Source: Candidatus Saccharimonadota bacterium (GTDB lineage: Bacteria > Pseudomonadota > Alphaproteobacteria > CAJXXZ01 > 1604HC). From it: DNA of 32,000 nt. The position numbers and the translations under genes were made by a program. Positions 10,942-31,700 of this stretch are shown one piece after another (the first letter of the stretch is position 1; each line of letters begins with the position of its first letter). The stretch spans positions 120,001 through 152,000 of the forward strand of contig NZ_CP043315.1 in NCBI RefSeq assembly GCF_008189285.1, read 5' to 3'. The notes below the pieces were generated by a model. That model saw only the letters and a list, made by a program, of their open reading frames with translations, was not told the origin of the DNA and made no database searches.

Positions 10942-11362
10942 ATTGCGGCAACCTTCGATTACCGCGATATTGGATTAATCTTTATAATTTACTTTTGCAA
11001 TTTGCTGTATTGCGGCAACCTTCGATTACCGCGATATTGGATTAATCTTTATAATTTACTTTTGCAATTTGCTGTATTGCGGCAACCTTCGATTACCGCG
11101 ATATTGGATTAATCTTTATAATTTACTTTTGCAATTTGCTGTATTGCGGCAACCTTCGATTACCGCGATATTGGATTAATCTTTATAATTTACTTTTGCA
11201 ATTTGCTGTATTGCGGCAACCTTCGATTACCGCGATATTGGATTAATCTTTATAATTTACTTTTGCAATTTGCTGTATTGCGGCAACCTTCGATTACCGC
11301 GATATTGGATTAATCTTTATAATTTACTTTTGCAATTTGCTGTATTGCGGCAACCTTCGATT
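10942..11362. repeat. Perfect tandem repeat, 67-bp unit x 6.3
   Basis: The unit is attgcggcaaccttcgattaccgcgatattggattaatctttataatttacttttgcaatttgctgt. Copies start at 10942, 11009, 11076, 11143, 11210 and 11277, with a 19-nt partial copy at 11344-11362. I saw no mismatches between copies. Degenerate unit-like sequence flanks the array at about 10915-10941 and about 11419-11450. Confidence 0.97.
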
Positions 11363-21959: not shown

Positions 21960-22690
21960 TGTCTAGTGGAAAATTTAATGTATTAATTGATCCATTTCAT
22001 ATTATTAATAAATACAATTGCATTGTTATATATGGAAAACATGAAGAAATTGCATATAGTTTGTTTGATGAATTTAGTGGAGCAGTTGTAGATTGCAAGG
22101 AATTTAAAAATTTCAATTTACTTCAAAATTCACTTATTCCTGAGCCAGACTTAAAGATAAAAATGTCTCCAAAAGATTTTAAAGAGGTTTTTAAGCAAGA
22201 TATTACGCAGTGGCAGAGAAAATGTATTATTTTGCTTGATAAAAAGCCTGTAGATATTCCGAATCATGATTTAATTGCTGAAATTAATTGCGATTTAGTG
22301 AATGTAAATAAATTTCTTGAATTTCATATCAAAAGATTGGATTATAAGTTTAATAGTATAGATGATTTATTTTGGGTGAAAAATTTACATGATCTTCATT
22401 TTGCAAATAAGATAAATCTAATTGATCCAAACGCGGTTAGCAATATGTCTACTCATGAAACAAATCAAATGAGCTTGATTAAGAAAAATGACGATAAATC
22501 TTTAAATGAATTTTGGTCAATTATGGAAAACCCTTGGTCTTGGATTAGATATTTGCAGCATTTTTACAACTACAGGAATGATGATGCAAAATCTGCAATG
22601 TGTAAGCATTTAGAGTTGTGGTCTCATAAATATGTACCAAATGATGAAATTTTTATATGGCTTCTTAGGTCTATTTTAATGAGAAATTGA
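21944..22690 (+). CDS. Hypothetical protein, possibly a reduced DNA polymerase III delta subunit (holA-like)
   Basis: 248 aa. The segments CIVIYGKHEE and AEINCDLVNVNKFLEFHIKRLDYKFNSIDDL loosely follow the HolA pattern. An alternative TAATG-coupled start lies at 21959. The functional call is weak. Confidence 0.35.
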   Translation: MEKRIMSSGKFNVLIDPFHIINKYNCIVIYGKHEEIAYSLFDEFSGAVVDCKEFKNFNLLQNSLIPEPDLKIKMSPKDFKEVFKQDITQWQRKCIILLDKKPVDIPNHDLIAEINCDLVNVNKFLEFHIKRLDYKFNSIDDLFWVKNLHDLHFANKINLIDPNAVSNMSTHETNQMSLIKKNDDKSLNEFWSIMENPWSWIRYLQHFYNYRNDDAKSAMCKHLELWSHKYVPNDEIFIWLLRSILMRN

Positions 22691-22824
22691 TTTTTAATTC
22701 AGTTTGAGAAATTGATTTGTAATTCAATCTTTTAATATGAAATTCAAGAAATTCATTGATATTTATTAGATTATATTTATTGGGGTGATTTTGATTTTAT
22801 TCTTTGGGATTCACTCTCTGAAAA

Positions 22825-22874
22825 GTTTTTTGCTTAGCGCTGGAATTAAATGTTTTTTGCTTAGCGCTGGAATT
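22825..22874. repeat. Direct repeat, 23 nt x 2 (gttttttgcttagcgctggaatt), period 27
   Basis: Perfect copies at 22825-22847 and 22852-22874, about 80 nt upstream of the hisS start. Each contains the palindrome agcgct. Confidence 0.85.
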
Positions 22875-22954: not shown

Positions 22955-24145
22955 ATGAATGTTAAAGGCACAATTGATTGGATAGATAATTATAATCTTA
23001 GGAAATATGTTATTGATAAATTTTCTAAAACAATGAATTCATGTGGATTTGACATGATAGAGCCTTCTATTTTAGAGCGATGTGAATTTTTTGTTCGAAC
23101 TGTTGGATCTAGTTCAGAAATAATGCAAAAGGAAATGTTTTTTGCTGTTTCTAAAGATAAGCAAGATTTAGATATAGTTTTAAGACCTGAGTTTACTACA
23201 TCTGTGGTGAGATCTTTAATTGAATCTGGTGATATATATGACAAAAGAGTGTCATATTTTGGAAAAACATTTAGACATAATAGGCCTCAAAAAGGACGTT
23301 ACAGAGAATTTACTCAACTTGGGTGTGAAGTTTTTGACGATAATCCATATACTGATATTGATGTAATTTATAGCGCTGTGAAATTTTTGCAAGAAATTGG
23401 CGTGAGCATAAAAGTTAAAATGAATTCTTTGGGTAGCTTCGAAACTATTGCTTCTTATAATGAAGTTTTGAAAAAATATCTTACTGAAAATAACATATTT
23501 CATGATGAATCTAATCCTATGCGCGCTTTAGATAAAATGACAAATGCAGATAAGCAAAAATATGATATTCCAAAGATTAGAGATTGCATGAGTGATGATG
23601 ATATTAAAAGATTTGACATAGTTTGCAGTGGTTTGAAAAAATTGAATGTTAATTTTGAACTAGATGATTATTTAGTTCGTGGTTTAGATTATTATAATCA
23701 TACTATTTTCGAGATAGAAAATAATGATTTAGGGATGTCAATTTTAGGTGGTGGAGCATATTCAGGACTTGTAAAGAAAATGGGAGGGCCTGATATTTCT
23801 GGGATTGGATGGTCATTTGGGCTTGAAAGAATTCTTATGATGGATGTGAAATTTGAGCAAGATGATAGTAAAATTATTGTTGTTTCAATAGATGAGCATG
23901 ATTATACATTGAATATTGTTAATTTACTTAGAAATAAGTATAAAACTTTCGCGTTATTTAATGATTTTAAGAAATCATTGAAGAAATTAGGAAAACTAGA
24001 TCCAAAATATATTGTTTTTTGTGGAACAGAAGAAAGACAAAACAATGTTGTTAAAATAAAAAATTGCATAACTGGAGAACAGGATAAAATTGCTATAGAT
24101 GATATGTTGAATTATATTGACCAAAGAATGATTTTGAAGGATTGA
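22955..24145 (+). CDS. hisS: Histidine--tRNA ligase
   Basis: 396 aa. Class II motifs RPEFTTSVVR, FRHNRPQKGRYREFTQLGCE and GGGAYSGLV...GWSFGLERI. The stop is TGA at 24143-24145. Confidence 0.93.
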   Translation: MNVKGTIDWIDNYNLRKYVIDKFSKTMNSCGFDMIEPSILERCEFFVRTVGSSSEIMQKEMFFAVSKDKQDLDIVLRPEFTTSVVRSLIESGDIYDKRVSYFGKTFRHNRPQKGRYREFTQLGCEVFDDNPYTDIDVIYSAVKFLQEIGVSIKVKMNSLGSFETIASYNEVLKKYLTENNIFHDESNPMRALDKMTNADKQKYDIPKIRDCMSDDDIKRFDIVCSGLKKLNVNFELDDYLVRGLDYYNHTIFEIENNDLGMSILGGGAYSGLVKKMGGPDISGIGWSFGLERILMMDVKFEQDDSKIIVVSIDEHDYTLNIVNLLRNKYKTFALFNDFKKSLKKLGKLDPKYIVFCGTEERQNNVVKIKNCITGEQDKIAIDDMLNYIDQRMILKD

Positions 24146-24147
24146 TT

Positions 24148-25200
24148 ATGTGGTGGAAAGAGATTGTTAGAAAATATAAAGTTTTAGAGAAAGAATTACA
24201 GGATATAAATATATCTAAGGAAGATTTATTGCAGAAATCTAAAGATTTAGGAAATATTTCAAAAGAATATGAAATAGCGCAGAAATTAGAAGATTTACAT
24301 TTCGATTTAGAAGAAATTTCTGCCATGATTGTTGAATCTAAGGAACAATGGCTTTTTGATCAAAAGAAAGAAGCAGAAAATGCAATTGAAATCCTTCATA
24401 AAGAATTTGTTGATTTGAAAGATAAATCAAAAATGCAATCACTTATGTTGGAAATTCGCCCAGGCGCTGGTGGAGACGAAGCAGGGTTATTCGCATATAT
24501 ATTGTTAGAGATGTATATTAGATATTCGCAACATAAAAATTGGTCGATTGAAATTATGTCAAAAAATATTACAGAAGTTAAAGGGCTTAAGGAAGCTGTT
24601 TTGTATATTAAAGGTGAAAATGCTTACGATATTATGCAATATGAATCAGGAGTGCATAGAGTTCAAAGAGTCCCTCAAACAGAATCTAGTGGAAGAATTC
24701 ACACTTCCACAGCAACGGTTGCTGCTCTAGAAGAAAAAGAAGATATTGAAGTTGAGATTAAACATGAGCATTTAAGAATGGACGTTTATCGCTCTAGTGG
24801 GCCTGGAGGTCAATCTGTGAATACTACAGATAGTGCGGTGAGATTGACATATTCTTCTCCAGATGTGGATCAAATTGTTGTGTGCATGCAAGATGAGAAA
24901 TCTCAACATAAGAATAGAGAAAGAGGCATGAAAGTATTGAAAACAAGATTACGCGATGCAATTGAACAGAAGCAACACAAGGAAATGGCAGATCATAGAA
25001 AGACGCAAGTTGGATCTGGAGATAGATCAGAAAGAATTAGAACTTATAATTTCCCACAAAATAGAATTACAGATCATCGTTCAAAATTAACAGTTCATGG
25101 CTTAAATGAAATTTTTGTTACAAATCCAGATACTCTAGAAAAAGTGATTTTTTCTATGAAAGAGAAGAATGTTCATAGTGAATTGAATTCTGAAAATTAA
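24148..25200 (+). CDS. prfA: Peptide chain release factor 1
   Basis: RF1 recognition loop RVPQTESSGRIHTS (PxT type) and the GGQ motif SGPGGQSVNTTDSAVR. The ORF track starts at TTG 24142, overlapping the hisS stop. The first ATG is at 24148. Confidence 0.93.
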   Translation: MWWKEIVRKYKVLEKELQDINISKEDLLQKSKDLGNISKEYEIAQKLEDLHFDLEEISAMIVESKEQWLFDQKKEAENAIEILHKEFVDLKDKSKMQSLMLEIRPGAGGDEAGLFAYILLEMYIRYSQHKNWSIEIMSKNITEVKGLKEAVLYIKGENAYDIMQYESGVHRVQRVPQTESSGRIHTSTATVAALEEKEDIEVEIKHEHLRMDVYRSSGPGGQSVNTTDSAVRLTYSSPDVDQIVVCMQDEKSQHKNRERGMKVLKTRLRDAIEQKQHKEMADHRKTQVGSGDRSERIRTYNFPQNRITDHRSKLTVHGLNEIFVTNPDTLEKVIFSMKEKNVHSELNSEN

Positions 25201-25440
25201 TGAAATTAGCCTGAATTGTAAAAGATTTTCTTCAAATTACTGAAATCATTCCTTTGATTTATTCGTTTTTGCCAAACTTATTCAAATAATAATTGCCAAC
25301 AAAGAATCTATGCATGTTAATTTTATGAGGAATTACATGAGAAAAGTTTTGAATATTATATAATTTAAAGAAAATATCATAAAGTTATTTATCAAAAAAA
25401 CAAATAAACTATTTCTATATATAATTATTTAAATGGACTA

Positions 25441-25625
25441 TAAAGTTGTTCATATTGGCGGATCAGCCTTCATAAATAAAATATACTTCTAAAGGCAAAA
25501 CAGCTTTTACAAATCTATTTCTGGCCTGCTTTTAGCGGAGTCACCAGCGCTATATACCAAGAATAATTCACATTTTGCTGGATCTTTTTCAGAGCATTCT
25601 GCAAGCCTTTTGAGAACTTGAAATT
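25441..25625 (-). pseudogene. Decayed internal fragment of gyrB (Toprim region), same orientation as the intact gene
   Basis: 25491-25624 aligns to gyrB 28000-28137 at roughly 88-90 percent identity by eye. It carries a 2-nt insertion and a 6-nt deletion that destroy the frame and the EGDSAGG motif. Weaker gapped similarity continues to about 25441 (matching about 27926-27999). Confidence 0.8.
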
Positions 25626-26046
25626 ATGAATTTCTTTTTGAATTTTTTGTATATTCCAAAAGATTTTCTATTGGTTTTGGATTTCTTAATATACTATGCT
25701 CACGTTCCACTGTATTTGAACTTAAATATACATCTTTAAGAAATCTAGAAAAGGAATTTAAATCTTCAAATGTTGCAATTCTAATGTCAAATTTGCAGCA
25801 TTCTCTACTAGAGGTAGGTTTAGTAGAAAAGAAAACAGGAGCGCATCCTAGAGAATTTATAAAATATCTCCCTTCTAAGAATTTCTCTTTGCTTAAGTCT
25901 AGCAAATCGATATCTCCTCCTGTAATAATTAGCATTAGCTCTTTTAGCAATGTGTTTATTAGTTTCAATTGTATAAGATTTCTTAAGAGCAAATAACTAT
26001 AATCTTCCATTAGCAACCTTGTTACGTTGATTCTATCATGTCTCAT
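25624..26046 (-). CDS. Hypothetical protein homologous to the C-terminal module of the 443-aa paralog at 29522-30853
   Basis: 140 aa. Shared blocks with residues about 297-443 of the 443-aa ORF are MRHDRIN, LLLRNxIQL, KEL, DLLDLxKExF, LKDVY and NPKPIENLLEY. The start lies 10 nt after the stop of the 273-aa ORF. Confidence 0.7.
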   Translation of the reverse strand: MRHDRINVTRLLMEDYSYLLLRNLIQLKLINTLLKELMLIITGGDIDLLDLSKEKFLEGRYFINSLGCAPVFFSTKPTSSRECCKFDIRIATFEDLNSFSRFLKDVYLSSNTVEREHSILRNPKPIENLLEYTKNSKRNS

Positions 26047-26056
26047 TTCGCCAAAT

Positions 26057-26878
26057 TTATGTGTTTGTAAATTTCTTGCTCTTCTTTGCTGAGATTAAAA
26101 AATTTACTGTAGTTTTGGCATTTGCAATCTTCAATGCAATTTTCAGATACTTTTCATAATCACATATGCCAGGTTCACCAACTACTGCTGATGCTCCATC
26201 ACTGCCAAGTTTTCTAAATCTTTTGCCAATGTTGCGACATATATAATCATCGTAATCATCATTTCGAAATTTATAATCAATTTTCAAAGTATCAATTTTC
26301 ATGCCAGATGGTATAATATTCATTTCACTAAATCCATTTATTCCTATCTCCAACTTTTCAATAGGAGCATTAAAAATAATTGATAATAGAAAATGAGGAA
26401 TACTTTTTGATATATCTAAAGCTCCTACACTTTCTCCACTTATTGCATAACCTCCATTGTAACCTTCTGATATTATGTTCCAGACTTCGCCTGGCTCTCC
26501 GTCAAGAATTCCTTCCATTTTACTGCAAGATATTTCATCCATGATTTGCTTTCCTAGATGTTGATCAATGCCACCTTTTATAGCATCTTCACTGATATCC
26601 ATGTGAAGTAGCTTAAATGCATTTGCTTGAGTGCAATTGCTCATCCTTACATCATCAGTGTTATATAGTTTAGATTTTAATTCATAAGTTACAGATAAAA
26701 ACATCATAATAGCATTTATGTTTATCGTATTAGTTCCTGGTTGGCATAGATCTTTAAATGAACTTAATGCAGATTCTCTAGCTTTGGAATATTCCATCAC
26801 TTCAAAAGTGCAATTAATATTAGACATACTTGCTAAAATAGCGCATGACAATATAGTGCTTTGCAGTTTGTTTAACAT
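26057..26878 (-). CDS. Hypothetical, probably secreted protein; N-terminal 192 aa identical to the 443-aa paralog
   Basis: 273 aa with a signal-peptide-like N-terminus MLNKLQSTILSCAILASMS. Residues 1-192 are identical to ORF 29522-30853. The last 81 aa are unrelated to it. Confidence 0.8.
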   Translation of the reverse strand: MLNKLQSTILSCAILASMSNINCTFEVMEYSKARESALSSFKDLCQPGTNTININAIMMFLSVTYELKSKLYNTDDVRMSNCTQANAFKLLHMDISEDAIKGGIDQHLGKQIMDEISCSKMEGILDGEPGEVWNIISEGYNGGYAISGESVGALDISKSIPHFLLSIIFNAPIEKLEIGINGFSEMNIIPSGMKIDTLKIDYKFRNDDYDDYICRNIGKRFRKLGSDGASAVVGEPGICDYEKYLKIALKIANAKTTVNFLISAKKSKKFTNT

Positions 26879-26889
26879 GATTTATTTAT
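26304..26889 (-). repeat. Left arm of a 586-bp inverted repeat flanking gyrB
   Basis: It is the reverse complement of 29511-30096, with paired positions summing to 56400. I found 4 mismatches. Confidence 0.97.
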
Positions 26890-27050
26890 AGCAATTAATT
26901 TTACATTCTTAAAGCAGTATATTTGTATAAGATGCAAAAATGTTTAATAGAATTTTTCATAACTTTCATAATTTATAAATCAAATTTTTTAAATACAAAA
27001 AATCCTTTGAGAAGATTTGCTCTTGAGAAATTTATTAAATTGCAGAAGTG

Positions 27051-29348
<2,298 letters not shown>

Positions 29349-29510: not shown

Positions 29511-30096
29511 ATAAATAAATCATGTTAAACAAACTGCAAAGCACTATATTGTCATGCGCTATTTTAGCAAGTATGTCTAATATTAATTGTACTTTTGAAG
29601 TAATGGAATATTCCAAAGCTAGAGAATCTGCATTAAGTTCATTTAAAGATCTATGCCAACCAGGAACTAATACGATAAACATAAATGCTATTATGATGTT
29701 TTTATCTGTAACTTATGAATTAAAATCTAAACTATATAACACTGATGATGTAAGGATGAGCAATTGCACTCAAGCAAATGCATTTAAGCTACTTCACATG
29801 GATATCAGTGAAGATGCTATAAAAGGTGGCATTGATCAACATCTAGGAAAGCAAATCATGGATGAAATATCTTGCAGTAAAATGGAAGGAATTCTTGACG
29901 GAGAGCCAGGCGAAGTCTGGAACATAATATCAGAAGGTTATAATGGAGGTTATGCAATAAGTGGAGAAAGTGTAGGAGCTTTAGATATATCAAAAAGTAT
30001 TCCACATTTTCTATTATCAATTATTTTTAATGCTCCTATTGAAAAGTTGGAGATAGGAATAAATGGATTTAGTGAAATGAATATTATACCATCTGG
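29511..30096 (+). repeat. Right arm of the 586-bp inverted repeat flanking gyrB
   Basis: It begins 11 nt upstream of the ATG at 29522 and ends inside codon 192 (Gly of IIPSG). Mismatches to the left arm are at 29590, 29602, 29941 and 30004. Confidence 0.97.
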
Positions 30097-30853
30097 AATT
30101 GCAATTTCCAGATTACACATTCATGCATTTGAATGTGATCTATACCTTCCTGCTTGTACGCTTTATAATCACCTCGTAGATTCAGATGAACTTCAATCTG
30201 AATTTGGTCTTACTTTTGATGAATTAGAGGTTGAGTTAGCATATGAACTATTAGGTGCAAATGATTATGGAATAGAACATAAAATCATCAATGATTGTTT
30301 TCAAGATGGCATTAATACCAACTTTTGCTTTTGTTATAGTGATAATGATAATGAATTAGATGATTTAGGAAAAAAAGAAGATTATAAACGCATGAATTTT
30401 AGCAAAGAAATGAGACATGATCGTATCAATATTTTAAGTGTATCGATAGATATGCAGCAACATTTATTGCTAAGGAATATTATACAATTGGAATATATTG
30501 CCATACTGCCAAAAGAGCTAATAATTGTAGGAGATCATGTAGATCTTTTAGATTTAAATAAGGAAGCATTTATACGTGGAGATTATTTTAGAAAAGGATT
30601 GTTGGATTTTCCTTTTGTGCTTAATGCTGATAATGGAAGTGACACGCCTGCTAATTTTGCAAAACTCGAGGAGTTGGATTTGTTTTTTAGATTACTTAAA
30701 GATGTATACTCAAAAATAGAGAGAAAAAGCGTAGAATGGACTAATGCATATATGAATAATAACGAGAATCTCTCTTCCTTTTCTTTCAGCAATCCAAAGC
30801 CAATAGAAAATCTTTTGGAATATTACAATAATTTCGTTAAAAATAATTCATAA
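29522..30853 (+). CDS. Hypothetical, probably secreted modular protein (fused form of the paralog pair)
   Basis: 443 aa in three parts. The N-terminal 192 aa are identical to ORF 26057-26878. A unique acidic middle segment of about 105 aa follows. The C-terminal segment of about 147 aa is homologous to ORF 25624-26046. It is transcribed divergently from gyrB. Confidence 0.85.
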   Translation: MLNKLQSTILSCAILASMSNINCTFEVMEYSKARESALSSFKDLCQPGTNTININAIMMFLSVTYELKSKLYNTDDVRMSNCTQANAFKLLHMDISEDAIKGGIDQHLGKQIMDEISCSKMEGILDGEPGEVWNIISEGYNGGYAISGESVGALDISKSIPHFLLSIIFNAPIEKLEIGINGFSEMNIIPSGIAISRLHIHAFECDLYLPACTLYNHLVDSDELQSEFGLTFDELEVELAYELLGANDYGIEHKIINDCFQDGINTNFCFCYSDNDNELDDLGKKEDYKRMNFSKEMRHDRINILSVSIDMQQHLLLRNIIQLEYIAILPKELIIVGDHVDLLDLNKEAFIRGDYFRKGLLDFPFVLNADNGSDTPANFAKLEELDLFFRLLKDVYSKIERKSVEWTNAYMNNNENLSSFSFSNPKPIENLLEYYNNFVKNNS

Positions 30854-30871: not shown

Positions 30872-30926
30872 TTTTTGCAATAATTTTCTATAATTTCTAT
30901 ATTTTTGCAATAATTTTCTATAATTT
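30872..30926. repeat. Direct repeat, 25 nt x 2 (tttttgcaataattttctataattt), period 30
   Basis: Perfect copies at 30872-30896 and 30902-30926, between the convergent 443-aa ORF and birA. The birA stop codon (30918-30920) lies inside copy 2. Confidence 0.85.
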
Positions 30927-31700
30927 ATAACTTAAATTATCCTTTAATCTTAATCTTCCTTTATGAAAAGTTCTTCTTTCATTATTCGATTCAATAATTA
31001 TCATTCCATTTTTATCATAACCTTTAAATATTCCTTCAATTTCTTGATTTTCAATATGAAGAGTAATTTCCTGATTTAAATATGCAGAATATTTATTGAG
31101 TTTTTTGAGAAAGAAATTAATTCCATGATTAAGAAAATTATCCAAATAAGTCAATATTTCATCACAAATATCTTCAGTCAACTTCTCTATATCTATTTCG
31201 TGCTTCAAAATATCTTTCAAGCAAATTGAATTTTCAGCATGGGCAATATTTACATTAATCCCAATCCCAATAACAGCCAATTGATGCTCTTTGTATTTAT
31301 GTAAATCACATATCACGCCGCCCATTTTCTTATTATTATATAAAATATCATTAATCCACTTTACACTTATCTCAACATTGTAATTTTGCAAAATATCATG
31401 AATTAAAATAGTGAATATTTGAGTAAGATTTATAACATTGCATTTTTTTAATTTTACTATGCAGCTAAGGTATAAATTGCCTTCAGGAGAATGCCATGAG
31501 CGTCCATATTGTCCTCGCCCATCATTTTGTTTTTTTGCTTTAATTGCAATAAATTTATTTTCATTTAATATAGATTCAAGATTAATTTCTTCGTTATATT
31601 TTTCATGAATAATATCTTTAGCAATAATTTGAGTACTGTCAATTTGATCTAAGTTTATCAATAAAAATTTTTTGAAATTACTGAGACTTATTAAATTCAT
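30918..31700 (-). CDS. birA: Biotin--[acetyl-CoA-carboxylase] ligase, class I (no N-terminal HTH)
   Basis: 260 aa. The motif GRGQYGRSWHSPEGNLYLS matches the BirA biotin-binding loop GRGRxGRxWxSPxGxNLYxS. The length is consistent with a ligase-only enzyme. Confidence 0.88.
   Translation of the reverse strand: MNLISLSNFKKFLLINLDQIDSTQIIAKDIIHEKYNEEINLESILNENKFIAIKAKKQNDGRGQYGRSWHSPEGNLYLSCIVKLKKCNVINLTQIFTILIHDILQNYNVEISVKWINDILYNNKKMGGVICDLHKYKEHQLAVIGIGINVNIAHAENSICLKDILKHEIDIEKLTEDICDEILTYLDNFLNHGINFFLKKLNKYSAYLNQEITLHIENQEIEGIFKGYDKNGMIIIESNNERRTFHKGRLRLKDNLSYKL

Follow-up and report, generated by a model that had tools for sequence, protein, structure and literature searches.

A gyrB-like remnant abutting the stop codon of a split orphan paralog in Candidatus Cytomitobacter indipagum

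The window analyzed here—the whole stretch of 32,000 nucleotides—originates from Candidatus Cytomitobacter indipagum, a diplonemid endosymbiont of the Holosporales with a genome of 628 kb; the proteins of gyrB and of the orphan gene Q are 100% identical to those of this organism. The locus runs from hisS to gltX and features an intact gyrB, the gene Q, a split paralog of Q termed Q′, and a short gyrB relic:

22955-24145, plus strand: hisS
24142-25200, plus strand: prfA
25201-25489: AT-rich spacer (21% GC) from the prfA stop to the relic, with no detectable homology to gyrB, the flanks of Q or the relatives
25490-25623, minus strand: gyrB relic, codons 402-447 (end of the transducer linker and start of Toprim), a non-coding remnant
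25623-25624: novel junction between the first base of gyrB codon 402 and the last base of the Q′ TAA
25624-26046, minus strand: 140-aa ORF, C-terminal portion of the split paralog Q′
26057-26878, minus strand: 273-aa ORF, the N-terminal part of Q′ (FZC35_00635)
26294-26889: left arm of the inverted repeat (596 nt, 99%), comprising the 5′ part of Q′ and the 11 nt that precede it
27051-29339, minus strand: intact gyrB (762 aa), the probable source of the relic (donor 27999-28136)
29511-30106: right arm of this repeat, comprising the 5′ part of Q and the 11 nt that precede it
29522-30853, plus strand: intact orphan gene Q (443 aa, FZC35_00645), between gyrB and birA
30918-31700, minus strand: birA
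31844, plus strand: start of gltX

The protein GyrB features the Pfam domains HATPase_c, DNA_gyraseB, Toprim, and DNA_gyraseB_C, with Toprim comprising residues 420-527. Read in the orientation of gyrB, the locus consists of gyrB, a spacer of 161 nt, Q′, and gyrB codons 402-447; the first-pass annotation, made from the sequence by a model, was correct in giving the minus-strand order as gyrB, split paralog, and fragment.

The paralog Q′ spans the 140-aa and 273-aa ORFs and is frameshifted relative to Q just before the stop codon of the 273-aa ORF. The 140-aa ORF is represented in the database by a 103-aa protein (P0123) that starts at an internal Met, and it aligns to residues 296-443 of Q at an identity of ~47%. 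No Pfam domain was found in Q or Q′. Homologs of Q were restricted to the three ORFs of its own locus, both in a word index of 5.8 billion clusters and in a HMMER search of 1.84 billion representative proteins, and the orphan ORFs at equivalent positions in relatives bear no similarity to Q by BLASTP or hhalign. A single-sequence AlphaFold model of Q is too poor to be of use (pLDDT of 31), and the N terminus of the protein, MLNKLQSTILSCAILASMS, looks like a signal peptide.

The 5′ parts of Q and Q′ form an inverted repeat of 596 nt at 99% identity (26294-26889 and 29511-30106), which brackets the essential gyrB; the segment between the arms measures 2.6 kb. The first 192 codons of the 273-aa ORF are identical to Q at the protein level. 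Over codons 1-192, the arms differ at five positions—all of them synonymous third positions (dS of 0.044, dN of 0)—and nonsynonymous differences between Q and Q′ start at codon 193, at the inner edge of the arm. With 116 synonymous and 460 nonsynonymous sites, approximately 10 nonsynonymous changes would be expected in a neutral Q′ arm, and hence the 5′ module of Q′ has evolved under purifying selection until very recently. The split paralog reported earlier is real as far as the frameshift goes, but the gene cannot simply be counted as dead. These symbionts have kept RecA and RecFOR (10.1101/719211), and, RecA being retained, the 2.6-kb gyrB segment could flip.

At the boundary 26294/30106, the identity between Q and Q′ falls from 99% to unalignable within a few bases. 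The two genes remain unalignable for ~220-275 nt (26078-26300 versus 30100-30374) and then recover to 69-84% in the last third. The middle of Q′ (26078-26300) matches nothing in the window or in the loci of the relatives, and Q and Q′ are mosaics that differ in their middle and C-terminal modules. The C-terminal parts have a dN/dS of 0.47 at a dS of ~1.1. Despite this divergence, a 33-nt patch of the tail, which encodes NPKPIENLLEY (within 25641-25689 versus 30785-30833), contains a single difference—suggesting a recent gene-conversion patch beside the gyrB junction. Patchy gene conversion between Q and Q′ is the likely explanation for the uneven divergence.

The relic itself was delimited by BLASTN with 25300-25700 as query and the whole window as target, which yielded a single strong non-self match: 25490-25623 aligns on the same strand with 27999-28136, with 120 of 140 positions identical and 8 gap columns (86%, E = 2e-42). 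A match in this orientation had been placed at 25491-25624 and 28000-28137, and it is confirmed, although its coordinates were off by 1 nt. The shared exact runs are present and each 1 nt longer than quoted, namely 17, 23, and 27 nt. Both indels of the relic, an insertion of 2 nt and a deletion of 6 nt, are likewise there, the deletion removing the Glu and Gly codons of EGDSAGG. At the E value of the computed alignment, the similarity is significant. The relic covers the linker of GyrB and the first third of Toprim—the site of the metal-binding Glu, which is deleted in the relic. A weaker similarity, claimed to continue to about 25441, is unsupported: the colinear comparison of 25430-25495 with 27939-28004 looks random, and a same-strand local alignment of 25201-25489 with the remaining 3′ part of gyrB does worse than shuffled sequences do on average (z = -1.3). 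On its left side, the relic begins at ~25486-25490.

The gyrB genes of five relatives (C. primus, L003, L004, L005, and L007) are 72-79% identical to the relic, compared with 86% for the gyrB of the organism itself; these relatives comprise C. primus, three with genomes of ~0.56-0.62 Mb, and one Logan contig. The relic is, as far as sequence comparison can tell, derived from gyrB and closest to the copy located 2.5 kb away. With 86% identity to the nearby gyrB and exact stretches as long as 27 nt, little room is left for a better donor such as parE. A BLAST search with 25201-27050 through 5-10 kb on each side of gyrB in loci L001-L005, a screen covering four relatives, matched the gyrB genes alone and revealed no second gyrB-like stretch. 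Since the relic is closer to its own gyrB and a second copy is absent from the flanks screened in relatives, it was probably copied within the C. indipagum lineage. An assembly chimera is ruled out by the difference between the copies of ~10% plus indels. The relic appears to be previously undescribed; the genome paper makes no mention of gyrB, synteny, or duplications (10.1101/719211).

The homology was said to run right up to the TAA of the 140-aa ORF, and it reaches this codon exactly: The gyrB match ends at 25623 and the paralog match starts at 25624, where, on the minus strand, the TAA has its final base. This second match aligns 25624-25689 with the 3′-terminal part of Q (30853-30785) in opposite orientation, at 84% identity (BLASTN, E = 1e-14). 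Codon 402 of gyrB begins at position 28136, and the join therefore falls on a codon boundary, in frame. Reading past the Q′ stop codon yields GyrB-like protein sequence, with 32 residues against 34 in GyrB. Both ends of the 134-nt relic are abrupt, and no microhomology is visible at the 25623/25624 junction, that is, the join is blunt.

The relic begins directly after the TAA and has no start codon; its frame is shifted by the 2-nt insertion and stops after 39 codons. Its translation reads FLVYSAGDSAKS against a 14-residue stretch in gyrB. The relic and gyrB differ by 13 substitutions and two indels. The polarity of the substitutions was assigned with the orthologs of relatives as outgroups, and the numbers are small: seven of the 13 are derived in the relic (two, three, and two at codon positions 1, 2, and 3, respectively), one is derived in gyrB and is synonymous, and the remaining five, all at third positions, are ambiguous. 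The occurrence of substitutions at all codon positions together with two indels indicates neutral decay—a dead copy that drifts while the parent gyrB stays constrained.

Signals of function at the RNA level were absent in every scan. For both strands of the relic, predicted folding is no more stable than in shuffled controls (z = -0.6 and -0.9), scans of the whole window returned no Rfam family and no tRNA, promoter-like sites around the relic are as frequent as expected by chance from shuffling, and the stretch from the prfA stop codon (25200) to the relic is free of terminator-like sites. A functional link to gyrase, raised earlier, is unsupported in view of the neutral decay, the lack of unusual RNA structure, and the lack of an Rfam match. 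The proposal of antisense transcription or a small RNA from the fragment likewise found no Rfam, fold, or promoter/terminator signal at the sequence level.

Further repeats occur in the window. The stretch 22717-22771 is an inverted 55-nt copy of 22293-22347, which lies inside a 248-aa ORF (84%, E = 1.4e-11); the copy sits 27 nt past the stop codon of this ORF and is a second case of coding DNA copied into an adjacent spacer. The same spacer carries two short tandem duplications (22680-22726 and 22821-22874). A 28-nt unit is tandemly duplicated (30872-30929, 96%) in the 64-nt gap between the stop codons of Q and birA. A perfect tandem array with a unit of 67 nt in 6.3 copies (10942-11362, 100% matches) occupies part of a 909-nt gene-free gap, an array unusual for a reduced genome of 628 kb.

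The gene order around gyrB varies among the relatives. C. primus and L003 feature glyA(-) gltX(-) birA(+) gyrB(+) rpsF/R(+), and Nesciobacter shares with them the core gltX(-) birA(+) gyrB(+); in all three, birA is located directly upstream of gyrB. L004 features prfA(+), an orphan ORF, gyrB(+), rpsF/R(+), birA(-), gltX(+), and glyA(+). In the window, prfA(+) lies beside gyrB(-) Q(+) birA(-) gltX(+), and rpsF/R are located outside the window. Compared with C. primus and L003, the gltX-birA-gyrB block is inverted, so that gyrB faces prfA, and Q is wedged between birA and gyrB. Since this block is inverted, the region bounded by prfA and the gyrB 3′ end—in which Q′ and the relic lie—is an inversion breakpoint with respect to the closest relatives. 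The gyrB neighborhood is reshuffled in almost every genome of the clade, with different lineage-specific orphan ORFs at the seams. Weak mutual similarity (E = 1e-4 to 2e-6) links the orphan ORFs L004 8695-9909, L001 20294-21793, and L003 13164-14786, none of which is related to Q. The earlier suggestion that this gene family has been associated with gyrB through more than one rearrangement is reasonable: The junction, the much younger homogenized 596-nt inverted repeat, and the gltX-birA-gyrB inversion can be distinguished.

That the relic is a dead piece of the organism's own gyrB, made by an illegitimate join, is held with high confidence. The specific route of tandem duplication followed by deletion is given a little better than an even chance. 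The full reading, in which the relic is a non-functional, neutrally decaying gyrB remnant made by one illegitimate join along this route, is favored with moderate confidence. A direct-duplication junction is preferred because the relic lies in the orientation of gyrB and the repeat unit is 2513 nt long. In the first step, this unit would have been duplicated directly, that is, in tandem, on the minus strand from window position 28136 down to 25624; it would extend from gyrB codon 402 through the 3′ end of gyrB and the 161-nt spacer to the Q′ stop codon. The sole new junction of such a duplication would place the end of the unit next to its start—the Q′ TAA next to codon 402. The spacing of the two copies, 2507-2513 nt, matches the length of the unit. 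In the second step, the second copy would have been deleted, sparing its first 134 nt. Deletion is common in reductive genomes. We infer that duplication came before deletion. The remainder of the second copy, which would consist of gyrB codons 448-762, the spacer, and a second Q′, is undetectable left of 25486, and the deletion step is therefore assumed rather than seen. Against this route also speak the lack of microhomology at the junction and the uneven ages of the copies: In their C-terminal parts, Q and Q′ have diverged far more (dS of ~1.1) than the relic has from gyrB (~10%). This leaves two possibilities, a junction much younger than the duplication that gave rise to Q and Q′ or ages blurred by conversion. 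The origin is reconstructed from one C. indipagum genome. The first-pass annotation had taken the fragment for the footprint of a past duplication or illegitimate recombination: The blunt join of the 3′ end of the orphan to the middle of gyrB bears this out, whereas the other origins it named are disfavored.

The alternative that survives best, which is possible although doubtful, is a short templated patch. Repair of a break or of a stalled fork at the 3′ end of Q′ would have copied the tail of Q first and then 134 nt from inside gyrB, and a large duplication would never have existed. The abruptness of the relic at both ends fits such an event, as does the second coding copy past a stop codon in the window (22717-22771, inverted from 22293-22347). 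The last 69 nt of Q′ are, in addition, unusually Q-like for a dS of ~1.1 (84%, including the 33-nt patch), but this similarity could instead reflect constraint on the NPKPIENLLEY motif. Template switching usually leaves microhomology, which the junction lacks, and, with one genome, a patch is indistinguishable from duplication plus deletion.

An insertion of Q′ at codon 401/402 of a second, now lost, full-length gyrB, which later lost its 5′ half and the bulk of its 3′ half by deletion, is improbable. The junction would be explained in its position at a codon boundary and in frame, and Q can appear in new places, lying as it does between birA and gyrB, which are direct neighbors in C. primus, L003, and Nesciobacter. 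Such an insertion would, however, require a whole extra gyrB and two deletions, and Q carries no transposase, integrase, Hint, or endonuclease domain and no terminal repeats. The piece of gyrB 5′ sequence predicted upstream of Q′ at 26890-27050 was not found by BLAST; insertion into a gyrB copy, an origin considered earlier, is hence disfavored. Searches by blastn and tblastx of the window and the loci of five relatives also returned neither gyrB 5′ remnants upstream of Q′ nor donors for the middle of Q′ (26078-26300).

Of similarly low probability is the junction of an inverted (duplicative or tandem-inversion) duplication that would be tied to the gltX-birA-gyrB inversion and later re-oriented via the 596-nt inverted repeats. 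The location of the relic inside the inversion-breakpoint interval, the arrangement of Q and Q′ as inverted copies flanking gyrB, and the presence of RecA are compatible with this origin. A duplicative inversion, which the first-pass annotation had listed, predicts inverted copies, however, and the relic is direct relative to gyrB; under the staggered-break model, moreover, the partial copy of gyrB should lie at the opposite breakpoint. This origin would also require several deletions and a minimum of one additional flip.

A reading in which the relic is a by-product of an active module is more improbable still: RecA would recombine the 596-nt repeats, flip gyrB, and thereby re-pair one conserved N-terminal module, reminiscent of a signal peptide, with two different C-terminal modules of a lineage-specific protein, perhaps along with antisense RNA from prfA read-through. 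The least credence is given to a functional element, in which plus-strand transcripts reading through from prfA would include 134 nt complementary to gyrB mRNA and could tune gyrase expression. The terminator-free stretch downstream of prfA would permit such a transcript, and its exact complementarity to gyrB mRNA would extend over stretches of 17, 23, and 27 nt; the pattern of substitutions and indels is compatible with neutral decay, and structure, Rfam, and promoter scans are negative or at chance. An intein or homing endonuclease and a mobile element carrying Q are rejected: Q and Q′ have no Hint, LAGLIDADG, HNH, or GIY-YIG domain (they are without any Pfam domain), Q has its own ATG and TAA, and gyrB is uninterrupted; a transposase or integrase is absent from Q, Q′, and the other scanned ORFs of the window, and the family occurs at one locus only.

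The significance of the relic is modest: It points to no new mechanism, and a functional explanation is unnecessary. Pseudogenes and mobile elements are reported to be very scarce in this genome family (10.1101/719211). In a symbiont genome described as stable and poor in pseudogenes, the relic gives a local duplication a date and a place, and it marks the prfA/gyrB interval as a breakpoint in the reshuffling of gltX-birA-gyrB across Cytomitobacter genomes. Its presence further shows that intergenic spacers of genomes of this kind can retain short copies of coding DNA. The inverted repeat that brackets gyrB, together with selection on both 5′ modules, is more noteworthy than the relic.

The locus, rather than the relic, resembles shufflons and other phase-variable switches of C termini in that 5′ modules of paralogs form inverted repeats and are followed by different 3′ modules. 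Unlike a shufflon, it has no site-specific recombinase in the window, the segment between the repeats carries the essential gyrB, and flipping is here only potential. The relic itself is closer to the join-points of tandem duplications that are known to arise by illegitimate recombination in Salmonella and Escherichia coli. Common to both are a single junction between the end and the start of the unit, direct repeats, and a unit of a few kilobases. Laboratory tandem duplications are usually intact and unstable, whereas 134 nt of the second copy survive here, and, unlike at those join-points, no microhomology is visible. Gene-fragment pseudogenes at duplication or rearrangement junctions are also known from reduced intracellular bacteria, for example, the split genes and remnants of Rickettsia. 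The relic shares with these remnants that it is short, frameshifted, and intergenic, that it lies near an intact housekeeping copy, that it carries substitutions at all codon positions, and that it has no start codon. It differs from them in being an internal piece of an essential gene that is joined base-for-base to the stop codon of an orphan. In kind, it is a gene-fragment pseudogene at the scar of a duplication or rearrangement and, hence, belongs to a well-known class.
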